From assembly GCA_965261395.1 (NCBI GenBank), contig OZ253462.1:4768001-4832000 (forward strand): a DNA stretch of 64,000 bases. Reading direction: 5' to 3'. This document shows, one piece after another, positions 46,191-61,154 of this stretch. The notes under the pieces were generated by a model that was not told the origin of the DNA, searched no databases, and saw nothing but the letters and a program-made list of their open reading frames with translations. Source of the DNA: Candidatus Latescibacterota bacterium (GTDB lineage Bacteria > Latescibacterota > UBA2968 > UBA8231). The position numbers and the translations under genes are program-made. Within the stretch, counting starts at the first letter, position 1, and each line of letters opens with the position of its first letter.

Positions 46191-48146
46191 TTACCAGTCA
46201 TGCACATTGTGGCCCTGCAAGGGAAACCAGATTACATCCACTACTCCCGAGAGCACGACGCCGATTACATAGCCCACGCCCAAGCCGTAAAAAAAGGGCT
46301 TGCCCTTGCGGTACGCTCTGACTCCGCCGTAGCGCAGCAGTAGCAATTTAGCTATCCAGACCAAAAACAGGCTGAACCAATAGATGGATGTGCCCGAGGT
46401 ATGCTGAAAGGCCAGCCCAATGGGATGGAGCGAGAACCAGTGAAAGCGGGCCCGTAACAGCGCTAGGCCTCCCGACTGCAACAAGCCCCAGCCCCAGACG
46501 CCCCACTTCCCCGGATCCCCAACTCTGGGATTTTGCAGCAGATGCACTGTTTCGTCTAAGAGGCCGGTCGCACCCATCAGAAAAACGCCCCCCCCTTTGT
46601 CATAGGCCATCTCGAGGCTGGCCCATACCGCGGTTAGAAAACCCACTGCAAAGGCGACTAGCACCGTAGCGGTCACCAGCCACGGCTGATCCCGTAGCGA
46701 GAAAATGCGCAGATGGTGTGGGATGGCGGGCCAAGCCGGCAGACGGATATTGCCGAAAAAAGCATGACCGGTGAACATCTTGAAGGCGACTAGGTCCTGC
46801 GGTGACAGGCGGGCCGAGCCCACCAAATCGACGATGAAAGAACTCCCCTTGGCATTGGGCCAACTGGGCATGAGGTAGGGAAAGCCCGTGGCCGCAATGA
46901 GTTTGATGGTGACGAAAAAGGTCGATACCATCAGGACAAAGGCACCGGTGGCCAGCGGTAAACTCGCCCCCAGACTGCAAGCCCAAGCGATGACATAGAG
47001 GGCCGACAGGATCAGACCGACCAAGGCCAAGCGATAGATCCCGACTTGGCGCCGGTCCCCCTCCCCGGTGCGTACCTGTCGCCACACTTCTCGCAAGTGC
47101 CGGCGGGCTAAGTACACAGACCAGCAGGCCACAAAGACGATGGCCCCCAAGCTTTCCAGCGAGAGGATCGCCTGCGGTGCCAAAGGCTGCCCCTCTGCAC
47201 CTATGACTAGTCCCACCCGATCCATCAGCCCTATTTTGACCGTAGCCAGCAGAGCGAAGACGACTAGGCTGCCCAGGATATCCAGCGGACATAGATAGGT
47301 CAAAGCCATAACCAAAGGCAGAACGCGGATGGTCAGACCCGGGAAAGGTTGGGGCAATTCGAGGTGGAAGCGTTTGGTATAGAGTTCAAACAGCGGCAAA
47401 CCCGGCGTGAAGTATGCGCCGATATTGTAGAGTAGGGGCAATAAGACAACCCCGCAGCCGATCCAGAACAGACCCGAGCAGAACAGGTCGGGCACCCGTC
47501 GCGGCCCGTCGAAGCCCCGCGTCAGATCAAGGGGCATCTGCGCCAGCGGGAAAGAGAGTTTTTCGGCTTCCATCCACTGGCGCTGGAATAGTACCACCAA
47601 GCAAAAGCCGAATACCACCATGCCCAGCGAGGCCCCCATCCACTGGATAATTGCCCCGACCCAGCCATCCCACGGCACCGCCGCCCCCTGAGGTAGCCCC
47701 ATCCAGAAGGTATCTAGCACCCGAGGCGAGGAGTCGGGAAAGACGCCCCAGGGCAAATAGGGAAAGAGCAGGTCCGACCACTGGTTTTCAGGTGTGGCCA
47801 TGTAGAAGGGCGCTCCGAGAATGGCGATCCAGTAGTCGCTCCAGCCCCACTGCGGCAAAGCACCCACCACCCAGAGCATGGTGAAAATAGTCAGCAGTTC
47901 GCCCCGGTCTAGGGCCAGCCGGGGCCACATGCGCCCGCAGGCGGCGTTGAGGAAAAGCCACAGCACGAAGGGCATAAAGACCACCATGGGGAACTGCGAG
48001 CGGACATAGCTCCCCGACCCCGATGCTTGTCCGACCTCGAGGATGAGGTAGTAGAATACAGCGACAATGGTCAGCCCCCCTAGAATCAGGGCACGCAAGG
48101 TAATCCGAGGGGGCTTGGAGTCGTCTAATGAACGGATGTTACGCAC
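46191..48146 (-). CDS. DUF6785-DUF6784 membrane protein (more divergent paralog)
   Basis: ITLRALILG, ATPENQW, RQWMEAEKLSFPLAQMP, LHPIGL, LRYGG, KPFFYGL. Confidence 0.82.
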   Translation of the reverse strand: MRNIRSLDDSKPPRITLRALILGGLTIVAVFYYLILEVGQASGSGSYVRSQFPMVVFMPFVLWLFLNAACGRMWPRLALDRGELLTIFTMLWVVGALPQWGWSDYWIAILGAPFYMATPENQWSDLLFPYLPWGVFPDSSPRVLDTFWMGLPQGAAVPWDGWVGAIIQWMGASLGMVVFGFCLVVLFQRQWMEAEKLSFPLAQMPLDLTRGFDGPRRVPDLFCSGLFWIGCGVVLLPLLYNIGAYFTPGLPLFELYTKRFHLELPQPFPGLTIRVLPLVMALTYLCPLDILGSLVVFALLATVKIGLMDRVGLVIGAEGQPLAPQAILSLESLGAIVFVACWSVYLARRHLREVWRQVRTGEGDRRQVGIYRLALVGLILSALYVIAWACSLGASLPLATGAFVLMVSTFFVTIKLIAATGFPYLMPSWPNAKGSSFIVDLVGSARLSPQDLVAFKMFTGHAFFGNIRLPAWPAIPHHLRIFSLRDQPWLVTATVLVAFAVGFLTAVWASLEMAYDKGGGVFLMGATGLLDETVHLLQNPRVGDPGKWGVWGWGLLQSGGLALLRARFHWFSLHPIGLAFQHTSGTSIYWFSLFLVWIAKLLLLRYGGVRAYRKGKPFFYGLGVGYVIGVVLSGVVDVIWFPLQGHNVHDW

Positions 48147-48188
48147 CTTCCCATTTTCTGTTAGTCTCGCGCCTTCGAAGCATCCTGC

Positions 48189-50219
48189 TCAAAAATACCC
48201 CAACACATTCCCGGTCTTTCCGGTGCAGGCGTCAATGACCAGCCACAAACCGGCCACTACAACTTGGCCCAAAATTAAACCGAGAAAAAACGGCCGCGTC
48301 TTCACGTACCCCGCGGAGCCGCCGTACTTGAGTATGGCGATCTTCAGCACCCAAGCGGTGAAGATACTGAACCACACCCAGTTCATAATGTTGAACGTAC
48401 CTGTGGCAAAGCCCAACGGATGGATCGGCCACCACACAAAGTGGTAGCGGATATAAGTCAACAGGCCCATGAGTACCGCGCCCAAAGCCGTGAAGCCCCA
48501 ACCAGATATGCTAGCCGGGACCGGATCGACGAATTTAGGAGCGATAAAATTGAATGCATTGCGCGGCACTCCCACGAACCAGAACTCGTGGAGGTTGATC
48601 CCACCGTACTTATAGGACAGGGTCATAACGGACCACACCGAGCTGAGCAAAGTGACGGCTATAGCCAAGAAAACCGCCCACAGCAGGCCTCTTTTACTGC
48701 CGCGAATCTCCTCGGCCAGCTTCAGCGCATTGGCAAAACAGGGCATGAAGAAGATGCGTATATTGGCGCTCCACACATAGGTGAAGGCCAGCCCGGTCAG
48801 ACCGGAGGCACCCAACGCGCTGGTGCCCACTCCAGAAATCACAAAATCGGCCGGGGTCAAGGGCGTGCGAATCACGGAAATTCCGCCTTCCGCTACCGCT
48901 CTGGTGATGGCGATAAAGATCGCGGTCATTCCGAATAGAAAGACCGGGACAACCCACAGCGGAACCCCGGACTGCCACAACCAAGTCCCCATCACCCCCA
49001 GCCCCACGAGCAGGCCCCAGACCGCCGTGCGATAGGAGATAATTTCGTCGCTATCGTCGATGGACGGGTCGTGGTTGAATACCTTGCGATAGACGGCTTG
49101 CAGATGCCGGCGCGCCATCCACACGCTGGACAAGACTAGCACGATCATGGCACCCATGGCTTGGTGAGCCAGATAGGGGCCAACCGAATTGGCGAACCGG
49201 CTCAAGGTCTCCGTGCTTTGTATACCCAAGACATTGAAGACTCCCCGTTGCACAGTCGACAGCAGGAAGAAGAACCAGAATCCCAGAGCTACATCGCGGC
49301 TGAGCAGATAGGCGAAACCGATCAGGCCTAGGTTCAGGTCGAGACGCAGGTAGGTGCTGCCTCTGAACAGACGCATCTCGGAATCGGTGTCGATGTGCGG
49401 CAGAAAAGGAAAATAGCCGCTGAGCGCGTTCGCCGTACCTATGAGGAAAGGCACGGCGAACCCGACCCACATGGCCCGGTTCCTAAAGTAAGGTTTGACG
49501 AGCGAGCGCCGCTCGTTAGGGCCGCCCCCCTCGCGCTCTTCATCCTGAATCATCTCTAACGGGACTTGGACTAAGGGATAGGGCAGCTTTTCGTATTCTG
49601 CCCATTGTTTGCGCAGAATGGTCATCATACATATAGACACCCAGTAGAATGAGAAGATGAACAGGCACCAGTAGAAGAGCGGCTCGATCCAAGCATCCCA
49701 AGGCAGAGCCATGCCTTGGGGCAAGCCCTCGTAAAAATAAGTGATGGCCTCCATATCTTGCGGGGCGATCCACCTAGGCACATGTGGGTGGATCAATTCA
49801 TGCCACTTATTTTCGGGGGTGGCGTAGTAGTAAAGCCCTGCGATGACAGGCAGCAGATTTTCGGTGAAACCAATGGTGGGGATGGAGGTGGCTAGCATCG
49901 CCATGATGTAAACCACCGCCAACTCGGAACGGCTCAGGGCAAATCTAGGGCTTGGCAGGGCCAAGGCTGTGTTTATTAGGAAAGCGAATACGAAGAATAC
50001 AAAAAGGGCGGCCGGTGTGCTGAAATTGTGGGCCATGACCGTGCCCTTGATGATCATATTGGTATAAGGCACAGCCGCGCCGATGAACAGCGACAAAAAG
50101 GCACCAATTGACACGGCCCGAAAGGTAATACCTGATGTCTGTTCCTCGGGCTGGGCCGCGCCGCGCCGGGTCTTTAGGTGGCGCTGGAAGATTGGAGGGA
50201 TCTCTTTTTTTATATTCAA
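48189..50219 (-). CDS. DUF6785-DUF6784 membrane protein
   Basis: Close paralog of 31133-33082 (AHNFSTP, YLRLDLNL, WSANIRIFF); start uncertain. Confidence 0.85.
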   Translation of the reverse strand: MNIKKEIPPIFQRHLKTRRGAAQPEEQTSGITFRAVSIGAFLSLFIGAAVPYTNMIIKGTVMAHNFSTPAALFVFFVFAFLINTALALPSPRFALSRSELAVVYIMAMLATSIPTIGFTENLLPVIAGLYYYATPENKWHELIHPHVPRWIAPQDMEAITYFYEGLPQGMALPWDAWIEPLFYWCLFIFSFYWVSICMMTILRKQWAEYEKLPYPLVQVPLEMIQDEEREGGGPNERRSLVKPYFRNRAMWVGFAVPFLIGTANALSGYFPFLPHIDTDSEMRLFRGSTYLRLDLNLGLIGFAYLLSRDVALGFWFFFLLSTVQRGVFNVLGIQSTETLSRFANSVGPYLAHQAMGAMIVLVLSSVWMARRHLQAVYRKVFNHDPSIDDSDEIISYRTAVWGLLVGLGVMGTWLWQSGVPLWVVPVFLFGMTAIFIAITRAVAEGGISVIRTPLTPADFVISGVGTSALGASGLTGLAFTYVWSANIRIFFMPCFANALKLAEEIRGSKRGLLWAVFLAIAVTLLSSVWSVMTLSYKYGGINLHEFWFVGVPRNAFNFIAPKFVDPVPASISGWGFTALGAVLMGLLTYIRYHFVWWPIHPLGFATGTFNIMNWVWFSIFTAWVLKIAILKYGGSAGYVKTRPFFLGLILGQVVVAGLWLVIDACTGKTGNVLGYF

Positions 50220-50402: not shown

Positions 50403-50792
50403 TTACGGAGTATGATCGCTTGCTGAGGGAACTTGGTAGGCAGTGTATTTGAGGTTTTTGCCCCGGGCCTTTTCCACCGGATAGCGCTGGGCCGAAATGG
50501 CCAATTTCTCCTCCAGCATTTGCGCGGCGTCCAAGCCGAAGCGGTCGCACATAAGCAGGACAAAGTACAGCGCGTCGGCCAATTCGTGGCCGATAGCCCG
50601 GCGGAAGGATTCGTCTGCTAGGCGGGTGGCGATCTCTTGGTCGGAGCGAAAGCGGAAGTGCTCCAAGACTTCGGCCGCTTCGGTCGAAAGCCCAATAGCC
50701 AAGTCCTTGGGGGTATGGAATTGCGCCCAGTCGCGCTCCTCCACGAAGCAGCGAATTTGGGCAGTGAGCTGGGCCAGCGTAGCTTCGCTCAT
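50403..50792 (-). CDS. MazG-like nucleotide pyrophosphohydrolase (DCTPP1/RS21-C6 type)
   Basis: FVEERDWAQFHTPKDLAIGLSTEAAEVLEHF, HELAD, RYPVEKARG...KY. Confidence 0.9.
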   Translation of the reverse strand: MSEATLAQLTAQIRCFVEERDWAQFHTPKDLAIGLSTEAAEVLEHFRFRSDQEIATRLADESFRRAIGHELADALYFVLLMCDRFGLDAAQMLEEKLAISAQRYPVEKARGKNLKYTAYQVPSASDHTP

Positions 50793-53099
50793 GATGCGTT
50801 AGACTGAGTTTGGAGAATCGCCTTCACGTCTAGCCGGTGAGTCTGCACAAACCGGATGCTTTTCTCTAACTCTCCCAATTTCAGCGGGACCTCAAGATCG
50901 TCCGAGTCTTCCAAAGCGCGATGCAACTCTTTCATTGCGTCTTCGTCACATATCACAAATTCCTTGTACATTGCCGCGCACAGGGGGCATAACGCGAGGA
51001 ATTGAGCTTCGTGTTCCTTGATAAAATAGTCTTTTGAAAGTGCCTCTACTGCTTCAAAGTAATACTCTCCATCTCGTTTTTTGAACGGCATTTCCTTCTG
51101 GCAAATCTGGCATACCATCTCACTGAAATCATTCGTATATTGCTCTTTAAGATCAATTTTAGGGACCACAGCTCCCCGTGAAATTCGGATGCTTCTTTCT
51201 TGAAGCTCGTATTCTTTTTCAGGAGAACTGTCGAGTTGCTCCTCAACTCTTCTTTGCCTACGATCTGGATTATTTGACGCTCTCTCTGGAAATGTCGGCC
51301 TCTGCTTTTTCGCCTTCTGCTGCTGAATAAATTCTTTCACCGCTTCGGGATCTTCTTTATTTACCTTTGCAAACTCTTGAGCTTGCTCGACGGAAGCAAA
51401 TCCGATGCTTTTGGCAACCTCTTCTTTGCGTTGATATTCTTGAGTGGCTTGTTCCTTTTCTTTTTGTTCCTGTTCCTCACGATCCCGCCTGCTTTTTCCG
51501 AATTCGATTGATTCCAACCATTGCGCTCTGGGCTTATACGAAAACTCTTCTGGGAGCAACTCTGCAACGGCTTCATAAGGCTTCACGAATCTCTCTCTAC
51601 CGTTTTCTATTTGCGGCACCCACCCTCCTCTTCTTAATCTCCAGATAAGCGTAGAATTCGCTGTCCTAATAGAATAGCTGGCATTGGGTCTATACCTAGC
51701 TTCGAGATACTCAATTTCAGGCAATCCATTCATTGTATTCCAGATAAGTTGGGAGTTTCTCAAACCAGGTTCCTTCAATAATACATTAAACTCTGGTATA
51801 TCATAGTCTCTATTTATTTCATTGTCGTTTATCCTAGCACCAGATACTCTTAACTCATCTCTCTCTGGATGAGACCACGGGATATATTGTTTTTTAACGC
51901 ATAGTTTAGTTCGTACGCCAACTTCTTTTGCAAACTTTCCAATTCTCTCTGCACTAATCCCGCACTTTTCATAATCTTCGGATAACGCCCGACGTTTTGC
52001 ATCATTGCCTAATGCCTCATAATAGGCTAATAGTCCGGTTTCATAGAACGGCGAATCAAGATAAACCTCTCTCGGCTTATCCCACTTCCCGTCAGTCAGT
52101 TTGAATATGGAGTAATCTGCAAACATATACGCCTGTTCGGGGTGTTGTTCCACAAAGTCAATGAAGTGCTTGATGTCCTTAATTTTTGATTCCAATCCTT
52201 CATTACTTCTATATCTATCCTTCAGAATCGCCTCAATTCGCTCTTTTTCACCGACTTCACGAACCCCGATTTTTTCAAGGAATTCGCGGGCTTTATCCTG
52301 TTGATTCTTGTCTTTGCCTGACAAACAGAGATTCTTGGCGACGCGGGGCATAGCTTCATCATGCTCCACTCCGTCACTTGGAAAATAGCACTCCGTTCCT
52401 CTTTTGTAGGTTTTATCATTGCATCGAATAATGCGAAGGTTCCATAACTTGTAGGACCTGTCTCTTCCTAATTCATCCAATAACAAAACATAGAATCTCT
52501 GGTGCCACTCGTATGTTTTTCTTTTAAGCCATTTTATCATCGTATCAGACTTTTCGGATAATTCATCTACAAGGTCTAAGGTCGTCCATTCTGTGATCTC
52601 CAGCATGGATAAGAAACGATCTTCCCGCTGGTTTCGTTGCTGAGGATTTGCAATCCACAGCGGTGGGGAGTGTCCATCACCTAGAATCGTTGCCAAATCT
52701 TTGTCTTCGATATGATCGGATAATCGCGCTAGCCCTCTGAAGGCATCCTTTGCAGGGGTATGACCTCCCTGTTTCATCGGGACCAGTTCTTCATTATTGA
52801 ACACCTCAACCAGTTTTTCCATGATGGGTACGTAGGACAAAGGCACGTTGTCTTGATCATTAGGGAGCGTTGCCAAAAATCCTACGGTCAACAGCCCCCG
52901 GTCGCGTATAGTGTTCATTGATTCCGCGATTAAATCCGCCATGTGATCCCGCAGTTCATCATTTTCTGGACAATCACGGACGCTATCGCGGGCAACGGTT
53001 GAAGCAAAAGGTGCATGAAGATGAAACCGCAAATTGGACGTTTCCTTTTCGGCCGGGAAGTAAATTGAAATCTTGCCTAGCAACGGTATAATGCTCCAT

Positions 53100-54677
53100 G
53101 GGCACCTTAGCCGATTGTTATGGCACGATTTCGGTACGTATGTGTATATTTTACAGTAACTTGTTCTATTCTTTTGCCGCCTCCCCCGCGGCACGCTCCC
53201 CTCGATTGAGAAAGAAGGGGAGCAATGCCTGCGATTCTCTCTCTGGCGCCCTTTCAGCAGCGGCAGCAGTGGGCGCGCTTTCGAAGTAGAGCGCATGAAG
53301 CCCTGGACGAGTTGCTGGATCGGGTGGAGACGCAAATGAGCGAGCACGGATCTACTCCGCCGACGTTGATGGAGATTACCGAGGCGGTGTCGCAAGAGCG
53401 CTCCGGGCTTACCGCGGCGGTGGTGGAAGCCTTCATCGAACGCCGCCACGGCCAGTTCCTGGCGCAAGAAGAGGCGGCCTGCCCGAAGTGTGAGCGCGTC
53501 CTGCGTGCGCGACCGTCGCGCTCGCGCACGGTGGAGACGCTGCTCGGGCCGGTGCCCTTGGAGCGGCCCTATTTCTACTGCGTTTCCTGTGAGCACGGCT
53601 TTTATCCGCTGGACGAGGCCCTGGGCCTGTCGGGGCACCGCAAGCAGTGGGACGTTCAAAACGCCGGGGTCAAGCTGGCGCTGGAGATGCCCCACCAGCG
53701 CGCCGCGAAGCTGCTGGACGAGCTGACCGACGCGTCGATGAGCGACTGTGTGATTCACGAGGTGCTGCAACAGACCGGGTCGTTGGACGTGCTGCAGGTG
53801 TGTCCGGACGCGGCCGACATCCAGGATCGCATTGCTCAAGCCGCCGCCGCTCGCAAGTGGCGGCCCATCGTGGTGTTGGCCATCGACGCGGCCGACGTGC
53901 CCAGTCGTCCCGAGACCGCCAAAGGGACTCGTCCGGGGCGCAAGAAGAGCCGGGCTCGGCGAAGGCGTTGGCAGGGTGAATACCACGAAGCCAAGGGCTT
54001 TCGCTTCTACTTGGTAGACGATGAGCGCATCGAGCAGCTGATCTCCTGGCACCAGATGGGCGACGAACAGGCCTTCGGCTCGGCCTTGCGCCAGGTCAAG
54101 GAGGCGGGGCTGATCCCGGAGGAGCAGGTGCGCTTGTGTGCCATCGGGGACGGAGCCCCGTGGATCTGGAAATGGGTGGAGGAACTGTTCCCGAGCGCCC
54201 GTCAGATCCTCGACTACTACCATTGTAGCCGCTACCTGCACGCGGTGGCCGAGGCTCAATACGGCACCGATGCGGCGCGCGCCAGCCATTGGCTGGAAGC
54301 GACTCTGGCGCGCCTGTTCTGCGGTGAGGGCACCGGCGTGGTTTGGGGTCTGCAGCGCATGCAGGCGGTCTCGGAAGAGGCCGAAGAAGCGATCGGCACG
54401 GCCTTGACGTACCTGCAAAAGCGATTGCATCAAGTCGATTTCGGCAGCCATCGCAAGGGCGGATACCCGATCGGGTCGGGTGCGATCGAATCGGCGCATC
54501 GCTTCATCGGCCATGTTCGTCTGAAACGCTCGGGCGCTTGGTGGTATAAGGAAAACAGCAACGCCATTCTTGCCCTGCGTTGCGCCTTGTACAATGGAAC
54601 GCTTGACCGGGTCTTTCAGCAGTACCGAGACAACCTAAAAACAACCACCAAAACCGTAACAATCACCTAATGCACCC
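53100..54677 (+). mobile_element. ISKra4-family insertion sequence (1578 bp) with 8-bp target duplication
   Basis: IRL GGGCACCTTAGCCGATTGTTATGG vs IRR GGGTGCATTAGGTGATTGTTACGG (18/24); TGCTCCAT at 53092-53099 and 54678-54685. Confidence 0.92.
53225..54670 (+). CDS. ISKra4-family DDE transposase
   Basis: CPKC/CVSC Zn motif, LAIDA, IGDGAPWIW, LDYYH, PIGSGAIESAH, RLKRSGAWW. Confidence 0.92.
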   Translation: MPAILSLAPFQQRQQWARFRSRAHEALDELLDRVETQMSEHGSTPPTLMEITEAVSQERSGLTAAVVEAFIERRHGQFLAQEEAACPKCERVLRARPSRSRTVETLLGPVPLERPYFYCVSCEHGFYPLDEALGLSGHRKQWDVQNAGVKLALEMPHQRAAKLLDELTDASMSDCVIHEVLQQTGSLDVLQVCPDAADIQDRIAQAAAARKWRPIVVLAIDAADVPSRPETAKGTRPGRKKSRARRRRWQGEYHEAKGFRFYLVDDERIEQLISWHQMGDEQAFGSALRQVKEAGLIPEEQVRLCAIGDGAPWIWKWVEELFPSARQILDYYHCSRYLHAVAEAQYGTDAARASHWLEATLARLFCGEGTGVVWGLQRMQAVSEEAEEAIGTALTYLQKRLHQVDFGSHRKGGYPIGSGAIESAHRFIGHVRLKRSGAWWYKENSNAILALRCALYNGTLDRVFQQYRDNLKTTTKTVTIT

Positions 54678-55514
54678 TGCTCCATTGCTCTGAGATTTTC
54701 TTTTGTTTCTTTCGCTTTTCTGTCTTTTTAGCAGTTTGTTCTTGTTTTCTCTCCAAACGGAAAGCAGCGGCAATTCGGCACGACTTCAACTCACCGTTTT
54801 CGTCCTTCACCTCAACCTCCTTTTCAAATCGAAGAAAAGAGACTGAAGCCGGTTTCGAGTCTCCTGGACGCTGGACGAGAATCTCAATTCTATTTTCCTG
54901 ATCTATTTCTTTCCGCTCGATAAAACCCTCAGTTGAATCAGGCAGCCGATATTCTATCTTTTTAATATTGCTGAGAAAGAGAAGCGTGCTTTCGTCCAAC
55001 CGCAGCAGATTTCTTTCTATTTCAGCACGAGCTTTTTCAGGTGGCTTTGCGTCATTATCAAAAGGGAAAGAGAAGTAGGTTTGTTTTTCGCCCCGAGGAC
55101 AGGAAGCCAATCCCTTCGTATCGGGCACGACTAAATCACGGATGTGGAAATGATATTCGCCTGATGTAATTTCAGGCGTCTCCGTATAGGCAAATACAGC
55201 TTTGAAACCAACACCAAACTTGCCGATGCTGGTCTGATCTTCTCTCTTTTTGCTGAAACCGATACTTGTAATAGAGTCCACATCCTCCAGAGTGAATAGT
55301 CGAGCTCCGTTGTGTTCAAATTCGACACTGTCCTCTCTGAGAGTGAAGCGCACTTCTGTTGCGTGAGCATCCTCAGCATTTTGCAGAAGCTCATAAATGA
55401 AGTGCGCGTTGTCGGGATATAGATCGGTTAGTAAACGTCTGATGCCATCATCAAAGCCGTTTTCGCGGTTCGCCTCTACCCACTTCAAACGCTTCTCTCG
55501 TAATTCTTCCAGGC

Positions 55515-58500
55515 TCATTTTATCTCCTCAATGTTGAGAACCCCATACGCCACTGGCTCCGCGACAATATCGACTTTCTCCTCGGCCCTATCCAAATCCT
55601 CAACGTGCCGGTTGTAGTCAGCCTCTGCTCGGCCTATCTGCGATCGCCGCATCCTTTGTATCCTCTCATTACTTGCATTTTCAAGCTGCTCTCCAAGGAG
55701 TGCCATCTGCGCCCGATGGCTCGTCGTCAAACTCTCTCTGCGGTACGCTGCCAATTCCTCAGTCCGTTGCCGGTGCTCTGCCCGTGCCTCAGACCACAAC
55801 CGATGATGCTGTGCCTCCAGTTCGTCCCACTCGCCCTGTTCCCCTGCCTCAGCATCCTCCGCCTTCTCTAAAAGGCGACCCAAATGCGGCACTACTGCGT
55901 CCGACGAGGCAACCAGCTTGAGCTTTAAATCTTCCCGGATGCCGTAGAATCGCCACTGATAAACGACGAACTGATACTGGCCAGTAGGCGCATCATCGTC
56001 CCGCACCTTTAGGTTGACAACGGCCCGTTCATCACTATCAAAAAAACGGGCTGCCTGTTTCACCAAAGGATGCAGTGGCATGACAAATGCGGCCTCTGGA
56101 TGCTGGGTGGCACAATCCTGCTCAAAGGTTATTTGCAGATGCTGGTCTTCCCCTTTCAGCCATGTCTCCCACTCCCGATAGGTGCTCTGCCTAGGAAGCT
56201 GTTGAAAATCGCCCAACAAGAGATTGCGCGCATCCTGTGCAAGCCTCAGCGTTTTCAGGGGCCTCTCGCCGAGGATGAAATCCCGCTCTTCCCCACATCG
56301 CTGCTGTAAATAGAGCGCGGCGAGCCTTTGTAGTGAACCCGGCGTCAACCAAAAGCTCGAAGCGTCTCTAATCTCCCTCTTCATCTGGTCTTCAGGGAGA
56401 CGAATACCAAAAAGCTTCATCTGATTCTGTTCCAATCCTTCCTGTTCTTGTATTAAGCGAATTTTATTGTCTGCCAACTGCTGGAGTTGAGCCTGGCGCT
56501 CCTCTTCACTGAAGGTATAGTTCTCGGCGATGTCCTTTATTTCTTTGGAAATCTCCCCGAGGATTTCTTCGCTACCGCCGAGAGCCTGCTCAAACACGCC
56601 TATGCGTTTGAGGCAACGCTCATAAATGTCCGCGTCAACAGTGCCCGGCGTGATCAGGTTGACGATAGCGACGCTCTCACTCTGCTGGCCGTTGCGGTCA
56701 ATGCGACCGATCCGCTGCTCCACCCGCATCGGGTTCCAAGGCAAGTCATAGTTCACAATGCAATCGCAGAACTGGTAATCCAAGCCCTCGCAACCAATCT
56801 CCGAGAACAGCAAGACATCGAGAGCGTCGCTGTCCTCACTCGATCTCTCAAACATACGCCGCAGTTCAACACGCTCCTCATCTGGCGTCCCGCCGTGGAC
56901 CATGGCGACGCGCACGCCATCCGCCCTGAGCCTCTCGTAAAGATAGTGCAGTGTGTGGCGAAAACTGCTGAACAGCATGACTTTGTTGTTAGGTAAGGCT
57001 TGCTTGTCCTCGATGATTTTGCACAGTTCCTCCAACTTGGGATCGTAGGGGTCAAGTGTGCTCGCTTTCTCAAGTACGTCCTTGATTTGAGATCGGATCG
57101 AAGCGACGACATCGCTTGGCGGGACGGGCTCCCCGTCGTCAGCCTCTTCCCATTCCAATTCGTCGAGCCGACGATTCAGAATGCTCTCAAGGAAAGGGGC
57201 CAATCCATACAGACAACTCGCCGCTTGGCGTCTAATCGTGGTCATCATAAACTTGACATTCTTATCCCCGTGAAGCCGACTGAACATGTCCGCCTGAACA
57301 GCGAGTAATTCGTCGTGAAGCTGCTTTTGGCTGGGAGTGAACTCAACATGTACTGTTTTCGGCTTTCTCACGGTGAATGCCCCAATATCGCGTCGTCGCG
57401 TCCTGTTGATCATGCTCGCAAAAGTATGCAGCACTTCCATGTCCGTGATGAGTTGGATGCGTTCATCCACAGCCACGTAGCCCTCAGCAAGTTGCCCTCT
57501 GACCCTCTTAAATTCAGGATTGTGCCTGAGAATGGCTCGTCCCCAACCCGTAGCGGCCGCTTCGTCGAGTGCTTCCATGGCCTGAGCCATCCAATCTGCC
57601 GCTTGGGTCCGCGCATGGTCCACCGCTTTATTGATAAACGGATTCGGCTCGGCCATGCGCTTAAAGCTCTCCATATCCTGAATTAGGTCGGGCCGCAGCA
57701 CGTTCAGCAGCACAAATAGGTCTTCGCTACCAAGCTGGACCGGGGTCGCGGTCAAAAAGACCGCAGACTCGGCGTAATCACAGAAAAATCGGACGGCCTC
57801 GTGAGAACGAGTGTTCGGATTGCGGATATGATGCGCTTCATCCACGATCACGAGATCGAAACGCGGCGGCGGGTTCAAATCCAGCAGTCCTTTCCCCTGC
57901 CTTCTTCTGCCCCTTCCCTCTGGTCCGTAAAGAAGTTCTTCGCCAAACAGCGAGTACGGAAGAATCGCTTTCTGATACTGAACGGGCCATTCGCCTTCCA
58001 GATCCATCTCCTTGATGCAATAACTTAGCGTTGAGCCATCCAAATGGGTGAACTGTTCGCCAAACCGCTTCATCTCACTTCTCCACTTGCCCTCGGCCAC
58101 CAATGGACGGGGACATATAATGAGTACAGACTTGATCTCCCGCCTCGCTTGCAACTCCCGCAGGATCAATCCGGCCTCAATGGTCTTGCCGACCCCGACG
58201 CCATCCGCGATCAACAGGCGCGGACGGTCTGACCGAATGAACCTCAGCACGGGCCGGAACTGATAAGGGATGAAATTGACGCGCGCCGCGTTCAGCGAAT
58301 ACAATGTCGATAGGCTGGGATGCCGAATCTGTAGCGCGGTCAGGTAGGCATGAAACAGGTCGCGCGAAAGCGGCTGCAAGCCATCAGCGGGCCGCTCCTC
58401 GGCCTGTAACTGAGAGGCATAATACGTCTGCACACTGCCATCCACAAACACCTTCACCCGGCTTTCACCTTCACCCGGCAGCACTTCCACAACCGCACCT

Positions 58501-59333
58501 TTCACAGAAGGATCGGACTTTAAGAAGACGATTTGACCTGGTACAAACACAGTTTGGTCTGGCATATATTTTTCGGCCATCTGCGAGGCGCTAGCGGCAA
58601 GCAGACGACCGAGCACTTCCAAATCGATCATTCGTGCATGTTCGCAGACAGCTAGTACTTGGTCAAAATGCTTATCGAGGTCTTGGTGTATCTGGTGATT
58701 TCCGTCCACGACATCATCGGTCACGTAGTGGACCAAAATCTCGGCTGCCTTGACTAGATGATAGAGTCCTATCAATTCGAGCGCGACCACCTTGGCATGG
58801 GCCGTTTCTTGTCCTACAAGATACTTCTTTTCAAAACCAGATTGGGCATCGCGCAGGCGGGAGGTTCGTTTCAAAACTACGTCGAGGTCGGTATAGCGAT
58901 CCTTGCGGATCAGTCGTAGCCAAACATCAAGGACTGTTGCCCAAGTGCGCTTATGCCAATCTTCCGAATCAACGGGAAGCTCATCCCAAGGTTCTTTCTC
59001 TAACCATAGCACTGCATCAGCCTCTTTATCTCCCAATACGGCAAGGATTCCCGCTCTCAATAGGAATTTCCCGGCATCGAGTGCGTCGGCCGGACGAGGC
59101 AAGGCGTGCAGCAAATAAAAGGCAGCAGCAGCGGCGAGTTGCAGTTCCCTTTGCTTTTTCTCGTCATCCGCTACGTCCTCAAGCATGAGATCGAGCACAG
59201 CCATTTCCAGCACGTCGGCAGCACGTCGGAACAATTTTTCGTCTACCAGCTTGTGCGAATTCTGTGCAAGTTGAGCTTGATTCAGCGCTTGTTGGCACAT
59301 CTCTTTCTGGTCTTCAAGCAGCCAATGACTCAT
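55515..59333 (-). CDS. SNF2/RapA-like helicase with an extra ~256-aa N-terminal helical domain
   Basis: PYQ, LIADGVGVGKT, VDEAHH, LTATP, EGLDYQ, YDLPWNPMRVEQRIGRIDR; ATGA-coupled on both sides. Confidence 0.92.
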   Translation of the reverse strand: MSHWLLEDQKEMCQQALNQAQLAQNSHKLVDEKLFRRAADVLEMAVLDLMLEDVADDEKKQRELQLAAAAAFYLLHALPRPADALDAGKFLLRAGILAVLGDKEADAVLWLEKEPWDELPVDSEDWHKRTWATVLDVWLRLIRKDRYTDLDVVLKRTSRLRDAQSGFEKKYLVGQETAHAKVVALELIGLYHLVKAAEILVHYVTDDVVDGNHQIHQDLDKHFDQVLAVCEHARMIDLEVLGRLLAASASQMAEKYMPDQTVFVPGQIVFLKSDPSVKGAVVEVLPGEGESRVKVFVDGSVQTYYASQLQAEERPADGLQPLSRDLFHAYLTALQIRHPSLSTLYSLNAARVNFIPYQFRPVLRFIRSDRPRLLIADGVGVGKTIEAGLILRELQARREIKSVLIICPRPLVAEGKWRSEMKRFGEQFTHLDGSTLSYCIKEMDLEGEWPVQYQKAILPYSLFGEELLYGPEGRGRRRQGKGLLDLNPPPRFDLVIVDEAHHIRNPNTRSHEAVRFFCDYAESAVFLTATPVQLGSEDLFVLLNVLRPDLIQDMESFKRMAEPNPFINKAVDHARTQAADWMAQAMEALDEAAATGWGRAILRHNPEFKRVRGQLAEGYVAVDERIQLITDMEVLHTFASMINRTRRRDIGAFTVRKPKTVHVEFTPSQKQLHDELLAVQADMFSRLHGDKNVKFMMTTIRRQAASCLYGLAPFLESILNRRLDELEWEEADDGEPVPPSDVVASIRSQIKDVLEKASTLDPYDPKLEELCKIIEDKQALPNNKVMLFSSFRHTLHYLYERLRADGVRVAMVHGGTPDEERVELRRMFERSSEDSDALDVLLFSEIGCEGLDYQFCDCIVNYDLPWNPMRVEQRIGRIDRNGQQSESVAIVNLITPGTVDADIYERCLKRIGVFEQALGGSEEILGEISKEIKDIAENYTFSEEERQAQLQQLADNKIRLIQEQEGLEQNQMKLFGIRLPEDQMKREIRDASSFWLTPGSLQRLAALYLQQRCGEERDFILGERPLKTLRLAQDARNLLLGDFQQLPRQSTYREWETWLKGEDQHLQITFEQDCATQHPEAAFVMPLHPLVKQAARFFDSDERAVVNLKVRDDDAPTGQYQFVVYQWRFYGIREDLKLKLVASSDAVVPHLGRLLEKAEDAEAGEQGEWDELEAQHHRLWSEARAEHRQRTEELAAYRRESLTTSHRAQMALLGEQLENASNERIQRMRRSQIGRAEADYNRHVEDLDRAEEKVDIVAEPVAYGVLNIEEIK

Positions 59334-60124
59334 GGCTCACCTCCAGGTATGCGAGATGGAAGGTCACCGATGGCGCAAGGCAGATATATTGCGATCAAGC
59401 AGCATGTTGTCGGGCATTGCAGTTTTCCCGCCATAGTTATTCCTCGTGTCCGTAAATCCAACTCATTGGGCTGCGTATCCCGAATCAGAACCCCAAAGAG
59501 CGCAAGTGCCTTGTTTCCCGACTTAAGGAATATTCTAACCGCAGCTTTGAATAATGTTTCATGGTCCGTTCCTTTACAGCGTGGTAAAAGCCATATAAGA
59601 AGCTGACTAACCAAGGACAGATCGTTTGCTAAGTTGTCTATCTGGTGCATTAAACCGCTCCGACCGTTCATTACACTCGGTGGTGTCCCGGAGTGAGTGG
59701 ATGATTTCACCTCACCCAGTACGAGGCGCGTAGCCCCACCTTCAACTATAAATCCGACCAAATCTGCACCTGGAAGGCTCGCATTAGGATGCCGCTTATC
59801 GCGTTCCATGTTCCAAGGCCATGTAATTTCATACTCGCGACTCAGGTACACTTCAGCTACTGCTTCCCCCGCCGCCCAACTTGGCTTTTCACTTATTTCG
59901 GCTGCCAGGATTTCCTCAAGGCTATCTCGAGCGAATCCTGTGTCGGCTAAGTCTTGAAGATACGCTTCAAATTCGGCCTTGCCTTCTTCATCGTAAAGCC
60001 GCACCGAAACTTCGTTGGATATGAACAAATTGAACGCATCGCCGTCTTTCATACTTACACCCTGCCAAGATACCTGACGGTCCTGTCTTTTATAGTCTGT
60101 GGTTAATAGATCTGGCTCTGTCAT
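59330..60124 (-). CDS. PD-(D/E)xK nuclease, Hachiman HamA-like
   Basis: GEAVAEVYL...SLPGADLVGF...LVLGEVKSS. Confidence 0.65.
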   Translation of the reverse strand: MTEPDLLTTDYKRQDRQVSWQGVSMKDGDAFNLFISNEVSVRLYDEEGKAEFEAYLQDLADTGFARDSLEEILAAEISEKPSWAAGEAVAEVYLSREYEITWPWNMERDKRHPNASLPGADLVGFIVEGGATRLVLGEVKSSTHSGTPPSVMNGRSGLMHQIDNLANDLSLVSQLLIWLLPRCKGTDHETLFKAAVRIFLKSGNKALALFGVLIRDTQPNELDLRTRGITMAGKLQCPTTCCLIAIYLPCAIGDLPSRIPGGEP

Positions 60125-60302
60125 ACCCTCATCTCGCGGACTCTCAGCCGCGCTACCGTTTTAATTTGCCCCACCAGCACGGTCGCTTGGGGTGCTATTC
60201 TAAAAGAAATACCAATACACTGCGCTGTACACCAAGAGCAATACCACCCTTCTCATCGAATAAATCTGATCCTGCTTCCGGCTCGGCATCGACGCCGTGT
60301 CC

Positions 60303-60348
60303 AGCAGCGAGCCTAGGCGATAATCTGGATCAGTGTAGCGTCGCTCAC
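60303..60348 (-). repeat. Degenerate copy of the MazG-like gene 5' end (partner at 50747-50792)
   Basis: 33/46 nt identical, ungapped; VSDATLIQIIA*ARC vs MSEATLAQLTAQIRC. Confidence 0.7.
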
Positions 60349-61154
60349 TAGCACCCCAACCCGCGCAAATACTGGCGTATCCCCGCACTCCGCCGCGCCT
60401 CACTGACCGCGTCCTCGCCCTCGTAGGCGGGCTCGCCCGGACAACTGGTCACCCAGCGGTCAAAGCCCCGCTCGGCGAGCGTGTTGAGCACCCCGGCAAA
60501 GTCGAGGCACTCGCCCTCGCCGACCGAAACCCACTCGGGATTGTAGCGTCCCGGCTCGCGCACCGTGCAAGACGTATAGTCCTGGAGGTGGACGTAATTG
60601 AGCTGGTGCCAAAAGTCGATTAGCGACTGCACTGGATCGTAGTCCCACAGCTCGGCGTGCGAGACATCGATGCACAGCCGCGCCTTGTCCAGCAAGCTCA
60701 TGTACAGCCGCCAATCCTCAGCCGAATCCACCAGCAAGTTGGTGTGGATGTGGTAGCTTAGCTCCAGCCCGTACTGGGAGGCGTACTCGGCCCACTGCTC
60801 GGCCCCCTCGGCCGCCCGCTCAATATCGGCGCGTTCCACCGGCCGCCCTTCCGGCTTGCGGCCGCTCATAAACATAAAGCAATCCACGCCCATCTCGGCG
60901 GCGAAATCCATCCGCCGCTTGTTGCGCTCGGTGTGCTCCCAGTCGCGGTCTTCGGGCGAGCCACTAGCCGTAAACACGCACAGCGGCATATCCGCGTCCT
61001 CGCACACTTGCTTCAGCCGCTTCGGCGGCCCCAACCAGTCGAGCGGCAATCGCCCCTCCCAGCCGTCCCAGCCAGCCTTTTTGAGTTCGGGCAGGGCCTT
61101 TGCCAAATCCGGCTGCCGCCAGCGCAGGGTCGCGTATCCCATCTTGAGTGCCAT
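60348..61154 (-). CDS. Sugar phosphate isomerase/epimerase (xylose isomerase-like TIM barrel)
   Basis: GWDGWEG, LSYHIH, LCIDVSH, YVHLQD, VGEG. Confidence 0.85.
   Translation of the reverse strand: MALKMGYATLRWRQPDLAKALPELKKAGWDGWEGRLPLDWLGPPKRLKQVCEDADMPLCVFTASGSPEDRDWEHTERNKRRMDFAAEMGVDCFMFMSGRKPEGRPVERADIERAAEGAEQWAEYASQYGLELSYHIHTNLLVDSAEDWRLYMSLLDKARLCIDVSHAELWDYDPVQSLIDFWHQLNYVHLQDYTSCTVREPGRYNPEWVSVGEGECLDFAGVLNTLAERGFDRWVTSCPGEPAYEGEDAVSEARRSAGIRQYLRGLGC

Follow-up and report, generated by a model that had tools for sequence, protein, structure and literature searches.

A probable three-gene anti-phage operon in a Latescibacterota bacterium, in which a HamA-family nuclease is predicted to dock on a domain fused to an SNF2 motor partnered with a Tiamat-like ATPase

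Introduction

What kind of system is encoded by a run of defense-type genes whose parts recall several anti-phage systems at once? This question is raised by a locus in a 64,000-nucleotide stretch of DNA from Candidatus Latescibacterota bacterium (assembly GCA_965261395.1, contig OZ253462.1, positions 4,768,001 to 4,832,000); the whole stretch is termed the window below, and all coordinates are window coordinates unless a locus (L) or genome (G) is named. A preliminary description of the window presented this locus as a candidate four-gene system made of a HamA-like nuclease, an SNF2 helicase, a GHKL ATPase–HNH protein and a MazG-like enzyme. The analysis reported here indicates that window positions 50793-60347 hold what is probably an anti-phage operon of three genes, not four. 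In the reading that is considered likely overall, a HamA-type nuclease (gene 1) and the N-terminal domain of its partner helicase have been grafted on a cassette formed by an SNF2-family ATPase (gene 2) and a Tiamat-like ATPase (gene 3), yielding a predicted defense operon. Judged by its sequence, the operon is a novel combination of known parts and, across the genomes searched, it was encountered in one genus.

Organization and composition of the operon

The features of the operon are as follows.

59330-60124, minus strand: gene 1, 264 amino acids; putative HamA-family PD-(D/E)xK nuclease, PADLOC PDC-M23A.
55515-59333, minus strand: gene 2 as a whole, 1272 amino acids; apparent chimeric ATPase.
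58572-59333, minus strand: gene 2 residues 1-254; helical N-terminal domain common to PDC-M23B and HamB-like helicases, the proposed docking site of gene 1.
55515-58571, minus strand: gene 2 residues 255-1272; SNF2-family ATPase, DrmD-like and RapA-like.
54678-55518 (open reading frame 54667-55518), minus strand: gene 3 N-terminal fragment, codons 1-280; sacsin-type GHKL ATPase domain, Tiamat-like.
53100-54677, plus strand: insertion sequence of 1578 bp that splits gene 3; transposase open reading frame 53225-54670, Pfam UPF0236.
About 50789-53099, minus strand: gene 3 C-terminal fragment; Tiamat-like core and C-terminal Cys4 HNH-like zinc domain.

Four co-oriented minus-strand genes are indeed found between 50403 and 60124, the third of them in two pieces, and ATGA is present on the coding strand at all three gene junctions, as had been described. 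Two of the three overlaps, those of the gene 1/2 and gene 2/3 type, recur in homologous loci (L020, L030). The overlap between gene 3 and the MazG-like gene does not recur in homologous loci. The G+C content (GC) is 0.489 for gene 1, 0.537 for gene 2, 0.44-0.45 for gene 3 and 0.587 for the MazG-like gene, compared with 0.55-0.65 for flanking host genes and 0.577 for the whole window. At third codon positions (GC3) the values are 0.45, 0.52-0.62, 0.44 and 0.715, respectively, and 0.70-0.83 for host genes. Genes 1 to 3 are therefore richer in A+T than the host, which upholds the earlier observation, and the MazG-like gene is host-like. Domain and family matches likewise support the defense-type identity assigned to the genes, and no methylase is present in the operon, as previously noted.

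Gene 2 combines a PDC-M23B-type domain with an SNF2 motor

The case for a graft is carried by gene 2. PDC-M23, consisting of proteins A and B, is a phage defense candidate in PADLOC that originates from a guilt-by-embedding study (available text of 10.1101/2024.01.29.577857). The PDC-M23B profile matches residues 8-255 of gene 2 only (expect value (E) 1.5e-54), corresponding to profile positions 18-264 of 1060 (247 positions), and is the sole profile match to residues 1-255. The gene 2 N-terminus is 54% identical to canonical PDC-M23B in an alignment of 334 columns; continuous similarity stops at about residue 254, and beyond that point generic helicase motifs are all that is shared.

The remainder of the protein belongs to a different motor family. 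Pfam identifies SNF2-rel_dom (PF00176), Helicase_C and ResIII in gene 2, the PADLOC DrmD profile matches residues 264-1144 (E 1.8e-120), and residues 263-1272 correspond over their whole length to residues 21-1035 of an SNF2 protein from L030 that stands alone (73% identity). The top PDB sequence match of the SNF2 part is RapA (E 6.7e-33), and HamB and Ski2 are absent from the best 60 of the 127 PDB sequence matches of the motor. The Pfam, DrmD and RapA matches agree with the earlier assignment of this motor to SNF2 rather than to a Ski2-like HamB. Both the GKT (382-384) and DEAH (498-501) motifs are intact, and the N-domain is fused to the motor in frame through a linker of about 8 residues.

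Proteins that share the N-domain fall into two groups. Within the best 120 of 201 matches (E ≤ 1e-3), the 26 closest, at 75% identity or more, all carry Pfam SNF2, and the remaining 94, at 67% identity or less, all carry DEAD. On these sequence matches, gene 2 is a chimera in which a PDC-M23B-type N-domain stands before a complete SNF2 translocase.

Gene 1 is a putative HamA-family nuclease

Hachiman is composed of HamA, a DUF1837 PD-(D/E)xK nuclease, and the Ski2-like helicase HamB, and structures of the E. coli ECOR31 proteins are available as 8vx9 and 8vxy (available text of PMC12278908). The suggestion that gene 1 is HamA-like is supported by its PDC-M23A match, its predicted fold and its conserved residues. 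PADLOC PDC-M23A (PDLC04527) matches gene 1 with an E of 4.6e-97, residues 7-261 corresponding to profile positions 6-260 of 263. The PADLOC HamA profile matches weakly (E 0.0018), and a Pfam scan of gene 1 gave no match, HamA (PF08878) included. A search with gene 1 retrieves 1215 relatives at E ≤ 1e-3, and Pfam HamA is annotated in some of them.

The AlphaFold2 (AF2) model of gene 1 has a predicted local distance difference test score (pLDDT) of 93.5. Its top PDB fold matches are both E. coli HamA (8vxy_A, E 7.8e-7; 8vx9_A, E 1.3e-6), with a probability of 1.00 and template modeling (TM) scores of 0.58-0.61; the next match outside Hachiman has an E of 0.048. A link from gene 1 to the solved HamA by sequence profile was considered and rejected, the link being made by the fold search. 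Across 74 gene 1 relatives, E138 and K140 are invariant and D121 is nearly so; E. coli HamA is inactivated by mutation of E138/K140 (PMC12278908).

Predicted docking and proposed mechanism

As described in the available text on E. coli HamAB, HamA is bound by the N-terminal helical bundle of HamB, movement of RecA2 on DNA and ATP is passed to this bundle, and the HamA that is released degrades DNA (PMC12278908). In gene 2 the N-domain precedes the motor, as in HamB; the helicase core starts at about residue 299 in HamB and at about residue 286 in PDC-M23B. The retained domain is located in the same place as the HamA-binding element of E. coli Hachiman.

Prediction of a complex between gene 1 and gene 2 residues 1-260 gave interface scores (interaction prediction score from aligned errors, ipSAE) of 0.83, 0.82 and 0.82, compared with 0.00 for each of three controls. 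At least 73% of contacts are common to the runs, and the partner pLDDT is at least 80. In calibration, 116 of 157 solved complexes and 2 of 215 mismatched pairs attained this ipSAE mark, counts that apply only roughly here because the analysts' own alignments were supplied. The predicted contact segments of gene 1 (48-84, 104-119 and 169-204) correspond to the three HamA interface segments of E. coli HamAB (30-63, 102-117 and 159-199; PMC12278908). The prediction supports, but does not prove, docking of gene 1 on the gene 2 N-domain.

In the mechanism proposed, the helical N-domain of gene 2 would retain the nuclease, as in HamAB, until movement of the motor, powered by ATP, freed or licensed it for DNA degradation. 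The motor would be an SNF2 translocase of double-stranded DNA, working with the Tiamat-like ATPase as sensor, and abortive infection would be the likely outcome. If this is correct, Hachiman activation, in which motor movement frees a docked nuclease, does not depend on a helicase of the Ski2 type, and a sensor cassette with a degenerate HNH-like domain of its own has gained an effector nuclease. A broader proposal, that HamA and its helical bundle make up a portable 'nuclease-on-a-latch' module able to work with motors of another class, is tentative and is offered as a possibility.

Gene 3 is a Tiamat-like ATPase split by an insertion sequence

The N-terminal part of gene 3 matches Pfam SACS (E 2.5e-21), HATPase_c_3 and PADLOC TmtA (E 8.9e-43), and an E43-N47-D50 motif is present. 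TmtA also matches the C-terminal part (E 9.4e-17), and the TmtA profiles cover gene 3 over about their first 690-800 positions. A Pfam search of the C-terminal 803 amino acids of gene 3 and of intact paralogs gave no DUF3883/NOV_C match.

Tiamat and its relatives are described in the available text of a recent bioRxiv preprint (10.64898/2026.09.30.754977). Curated Tiamat is a stand-alone protein for which a C-terminal PD-(D/E)xK domain (DUF3883/NOV_C) is required, and the B. cereus protein shows ATPase activity, cleavage of single-stranded DNA and nicking. Type IV-A Tiamat-like proteins possess an HNH-like fold without catalytic residues. Many Tiamat-like proteins, including Type IV-B, have helicase neighbors, Swi/Snf among them.

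The C-terminal end of gene 3 resembles the Type IV-A arrangement. A CxxC...CPxC motif is invariant in 45 gene 3 C-terminal sequences, and the sole His between the Cys pairs varies between H and Y, leaving no invariant His in the Cys4 domain across these sequences. The model of the last 170 amino acids has a pLDDT of 71.4, and Foldseek returned no match to it at E ≤ 0.001. The top weak fold matches are HNH nucleases: EcoKMcrA (E 0.028, 50 columns, root-mean-square deviation 2.0), then Cap5, TagI, the Cas9 HNH domain and PacI. The end of gene 3 may thus be a catalytically degenerate HNH-like zinc domain whose likeness to HNH is weak. The name 'GHKL ATPase-HNH' given to this gene earlier stands for a GHKL ATPase with an HNH-like end; 'HNH nuclease' would go beyond what is shown, because the domain is without an invariant catalytic His. 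Gene 3 may belong to the Type IV-A Tiamat-like class, with which the HNH matches of the modeled end are consistent but weak.

The C-terminal module of gene 3 is found in 820 proteins at E ≤ 1e-3. Among the 120 matches listed, most are about 985-1085 amino acids long and carry SACS, and about ten are shorter and without SACS annotation.

In the window, gene 3 is in two fragments that together account for a public uninterrupted allele of 1047 amino acids, P0398. The N-terminal fragment is identical to P0398 residues 1-280 (280/280), and the C-terminal fragment matches residues 282-1047 at 763 of 766 positions. By coordinate arithmetic, removal of the insertion sequence and one repeat copy regains the frame of 1047 codons. 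The element has imperfect inverted repeats of 24 nt (53100-53123 and 54654-54677) and is flanked by an 8-bp target duplication, TGCTCCAT (53092-53099 and 54678-54685). It encodes a transposase of 481 amino acids (Pfam UPF0236) and has a GC of 0.625. At least seven full-length copies, the window copy and six elsewhere, are present in this genome at 100% identity, and because the copies are identical the insertion into gene 3 is taken to be recent. From this sequence evidence, the window copy of the operon is disabled in gene 3 by a recent insertion. The UPF0236-type element also seems to be still active in this genome.

Gene 3 is variable elsewhere in the family as well. In G022 it has been broken independently: the open reading frame ends at 753 amino acids, after which come genes for an IS1595-family transposase and an fn3-domain protein (L001:14586-19822 and L022:297-2081), with more gene 3 fragments downstream. 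In some gene 3 homologs, at L002:14660-17770 and also at L039, L040, L042, L046 and L047, identity is as low as 34-36% in the ATPase domain but 53-64% in the remainder. From this pattern, modules may have been exchanged within the Tiamat-like gene itself. At L050 (G146:C13:1346176-1352214), what follows SNF2 matches the C-terminal part of gene 3 alone (45% identity), starting directly; the ATPase domain of this Tiamat-like partner may be missing or unrecognizable.

Origin, distribution and maintenance of the chimera

Both apparent parents of the chimera can be found. Canonical relatives, in which a gene 1 homolog (40-69% identity to gene 1) is accompanied by a DEAD-box helicase, occur in metagenome-assembled genomes of Anaerolineales, Brocadiaceae and Nitrospirae (L004-L006) and in two other genomes of Latescibacterota (L029, L031). 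The canonical helicase has 1053-1075 amino acids and matches PDC-M23B over positions 4-1059 with about 1350-1400 bits. It also matches HamB profiles (E 1e-58 to 1e-69) and structures of Ski2, Brr2 and Hel308, and solved HamB (8vx9_B) is matched from residue 286 (E 5.1e-16). Because its helicase matches HamB profiles, Ski2-type structures and solved HamB, PDC-M23 is regarded as a divergent Hachiman-like pair.

Two canonical pairs (L006:4985-13466 and L029:9190-17647) are located directly upstream of the type I restriction gene hsdR, the L006 pair lying between hsdS and hsdR. At L029 an OLD-type AAA_15/TOPRIM gene is found about 0.6 kb upstream of the pair. Such placement is in keeping with the way in which the PADLOC candidate arose, by 'guilt-by-embedding'.

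The second parent is the SNF2–Tiamat-like cassette, which without gene 1 is common in the phylum. The SNF2 part was searched in 168 genomes of the phylum, 29 of which had a match at E ≤ 1e-60. Close SNF2 homologs (at least 52% identity) were present at 27 loci, one of which ends at a contig end, leaving 26 that could be assessed. A Tiamat-like gene 3 homolog follows SNF2 at 24 of the 26; 17 of these 24 are without gene 1 and the N-domain, and 7 have both. The seven chimeric loci belong to six genomes of a single Latescibacterota genus, and one of them (G018) is pseudogenized. In the two-gene cassette of L030, SNF2 (1035 amino acids) and the Tiamat-like gene (1090 amino acids) overlap by 4 nt and stand among housekeeping genes. 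The two-gene cassette and the three-gene chimera are both present in one genus.

The junction in gene 2 is sharp, at about residue 254, and both parental types occur in the same phylum and even in the same genome, G035, which holds a canonical PDC-M23 locus (L029) and an SNF2–Tiamat-like locus (L030). In the scenario proposed, gene 1 and the first approximately 254 codons of its partner helicase would have recombined onto the 5ʹ end of an SNF2 gene in one genus, the recipient being a resident two-gene SNF2–Tiamat-like cassette. In a maximum-likelihood tree of SNF2 parts, the chimeric clade has a Shimodaira–Hasegawa-like approximate likelihood ratio test (SH-aLRT) value of 100 and is sister (94) to stand-alone SNF2 proteins of the same family. 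G142 and G006, whose loci share the chromosomal site of the chimera but are without gene 1, nest inside the chimeric clade (SH-aLRT 90-93), which suggests that gene 1 was lost from them later than the fusion. G142, in which SNF2 and gene 3 stand beside the AP_endonuc_2 gene described below, was considered as an ancestor of the chimera and rejected on account of this nesting.

A synteny search for intact copies, as the preliminary description had proposed, was productive. A second copy in this genome (L020) is intact, encodes proteins of 264, 1288 and 1062 amino acids and keeps both 4-nt overlaps; downstream of it is a convergent gene and no fourth gene. L002 is also intact, and P0398 provides a gene 3 allele free of the insertion sequence. 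Pairwise ratios of nonsynonymous to synonymous substitution (dN/dS) among five chimeric copies are 0.21-0.45 for gene 1, 0.16-0.64 for the N-domain and 0.15-0.20 for SNF2. The chimera is under purifying selection in all three of these parts.

The MazG-like gene and the edges of the island

The operon is flanked in the window by two host genes.

50403-50792, minus strand: MazG-like gene, 129 amino acids; conserved host gene flanking the island, outside the system.
60348-61154, minus strand: xylose-isomerase-like TIM-barrel gene (AP_endonuc_2), Pfam PF01261, E 1.1e-28; host gene at the other island edge.

The MazG-like gene (Pfam MazG-like, E 1.3e-10) had been counted as the fourth component of the system, an assignment that does not hold: the gene is genus-wide, is absent from related operons and borders gene 3 at a secondary junction. 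In genomes of the same genus it is present in 23 of 24 (70-98% identity), compared with 4 of 24 for gene 1 and 7 of 24 for the C-terminal part of gene 3. It was not found in the homologous operons examined (L001, L002, L003, L007, L020 and L030). At the nucleotide level, the window becomes homologous to the MazG loci of relatives no more than about 3 nt from the MazG ATG, and its homology to the island stops about 3 nt before that codon. The gene that ends at this ATG is an FGE-sulfatase gene in 10 of 11 loci of relatives and AP_endonuc_2 in G001.

The native end of gene 3 (…CTCCAAAACTCAGTCTAA in L002 and L020), with its TAA stop, is still visible in the window minus one A. Because of this 1-nt deletion in an A-run, the gene 3 frame runs five codons further, to the TGA within the MazG ATGA. 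The gene 3/MazG overlap is thus a deletion junction plus a frameshift and not a product of co-evolution. A plausible case of translational coupling can, in other words, be a deletion accident. From these sequence comparisons, the MazG-like gene is a host core gene next to which gene 3 was brought by a deletion of about 30-40 kb.

In G022, G012 and G018 the island adjoins AP_endonuc_2, and MazG lies 30-40 kb away. In L001, L002 and L007/L026 the AP_endonuc_2 gene directly precedes the system; it also adjoins a gene 2 remnant (L034) and an SNF2–gene 3 pair (L037). In G001 (L021/L018, G001:C1, about 5694600-5695830), MazG follows AP_endonuc_2 by 5 nt, and both the island and the 30-kb interval are missing. 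Deletion of the interval has thus affected at least G000 and G001, or else one of the two is descended from the other.

The interval between AP_endonuc_2 and MazG was also considered as a defense island, an idea that was rejected; its approximately 30 kb in G022 hold ordinary-looking genes for TPR/PMT, CHU_C secretion-signal proteins, rotamase, DUF6785, GMC oxidoreductase and FGE-sulfatase. Downstream of MazG in the window (46191-50219) are two tandem paralogs of 651 and 676 amino acids with DUF6785 and DUF6784, and further paralogs of this kind are present in the 30-40 kb interval of relatives (L022-L028).

Alternative explanations

Three other explanations of the locus were weighed. It is highly improbable that four genes form the system, with the MazG-like enzyme translationally coupled and, for example, depleting nucleotides. 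Such a system would account for the ATGA overlap with gene 3, and MazG-like enzymes occur in some defense contexts, but the gene is present in 23 of 24 same-genus genomes versus 4 of 24 for gene 1, has a host-like GC3 (0.715), is absent from homologous operons and follows FGE-sulfatase in 10 of 11 relatives. The overlap itself arises where the native TAA of gene 3 is bypassed by a 1-nt deletion and island homology ends about 3 nt before the MazG ATG. That two systems are merely joined, a toxin/anti-toxin-like module of nuclease and N-domain beside an independent SNF2–Tiamat-like pair, with no signal passing between them, is unlikely. Persistence of the pair without gene 1 at 17 loci, and its retention in G142 (L037) after loss of gene 1 and the N-domain, would be expected from such a union. 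Countering this, only about 8 linker residues separate the N-domain from the motor to which it is fused in frame, the intact copy retains both junction overlaps, and all three parts have been under purifying selection after the fusion; moreover, in solved HamAB, HamA is controlled via a bundle attached to the helicase (available text of PMC12278908). The third explanation, an accidental chimera that is decaying as non-functional recombination debris in a variable chromosomal region, is very unlikely. The damage at 5 of 8 chimeric-clade loci and the presence of the window insertion sequence in at least seven copies at 100% identity would suit it, but intact full-length copies exist at two chromosomal sites and in several genomes (L020, L002, P0398, and L038 over its covered part), dN/dS is well below 1 at dS values of 0.04-0.41, and the catalytic and ATPase motifs are intact.

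The reading of a HamA-type nuclease and N-domain grafted on an SNF2–Tiamat-like cassette also has points that weigh against it. Pfam HamA is reached at E ≤ 0.01 by 8 of 74 diverse gene 1 relatives, and a profile of 18 gene 1 homologs searched against PDB sequences found no HamA, its best match (E 0.46) being unrelated; because sequence profiles link gene 1 poorly to HamA, its place in the family rests on fold and partner. PDC-M23, the parent, is itself a candidate system in PADLOC (10.1101/2024.01.29.577857). Since HamAB has already been solved, the complex score shows likeness to HamAB and is not a proof of binding. That an SNF2 motor transmits the conformational signal of a Ski2 helicase, and that gene 3 interacts with gene 2, are suppositions of the proposed mechanism. 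The tree of SNF2 parts comes from a quick search only. Finally, 5 of the 8 loci of the chimeric clade are damaged, by the insertion sequence in gene 3 (window), insertions that split gene 3 (G022), reduction to a remnant (G006), truncation of gene 1 with a frameshift in gene 2 (G018), or loss of gene 1 and the N-domain (G142).

Relationship to known defense systems

A literature search found no paper on a HamA-family nuclease with an SNF2 partner or a Tiamat-like gene, and a search on the name PDC-M23 found nothing. The view that the combination is unlike any named system is sustained insofar as none was found described; its parts, PDC-M23 and the cassette of SNF2 and a sacsin-like protein, are known. 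Annotation pipelines will split the operon into 'PDC-M23 (partial)', 'DrmD' and 'Tiamat'. If the proposed reading is correct, the two-gene cassette and the three-gene chimera form a natural before-and-after pair for dissecting SNF2–Tiamat-like sensing. The chimera could offer a test of the latch on a motor other than Ski2 and a handle on the mechanism of Tiamat-like proteins partnered with SNF2.

The operon resembles Hachiman in the HamA fold and D...ExK motif of gene 1, in the helical domain carried by the partner ATPase, with predicted gene 1 contact via the same three surface segments, and in having no methylase. However, its motor is SNF2 rather than Ski2-like, the HamB core is not found in gene 2, a third gene encoding a Tiamat-like ATPase is added, and gene 1 is missed by Pfam HamA. 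With PDC-M23 it shares a full-length A protein (gene 1) and, in gene 2 residues 8-255, the start of the B protein. Unlike PDC-M23, it has no full-length B protein, the DEAD/Ski2 core and C-terminal parts being replaced by SNF2, and canonical PDC-M23 loci consist of two genes, often embedded in type I restriction–modification operons (L006, L029).

Gene 3 is similar to Tiamat in its sacsin/Hsp90-type GHKL ATPase and its TmtA profile matches. It differs in being without a C-terminal PD-(D/E)xK domain (DUF3883/NOV_C) and in not standing alone. It may also resemble Type IV Tiamat-like proteins in its Cys4 HNH-like end (a weak match) and its SNF2 neighbor; the available text of 10.64898/2026.09.30.754977 mentions no HamA-family partner for Tiamat-like proteins.

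The SNF2 part of gene 2 recalls DISARM through its match to the DrmD profile (E 1.8e-120). Unlike DISARM, the operon has no DrmA, DrmB, DrmC or methylase, and the DrmA match that is seen falls on the shared helicase core only. A Halomonas defense protein reportedly has Snf2 fused to a nuclease. With this fusion and other defense SNF2 ATPases (BrxHII, DpdE and ZorD), the operon shares the common theme of an SNF2 motor combined with a nuclease. In contrast to the fused nuclease of Halomonas, the HamA-family nuclease here is encoded by its own gene, and the domain to which it is predicted to bind is a borrowed one.

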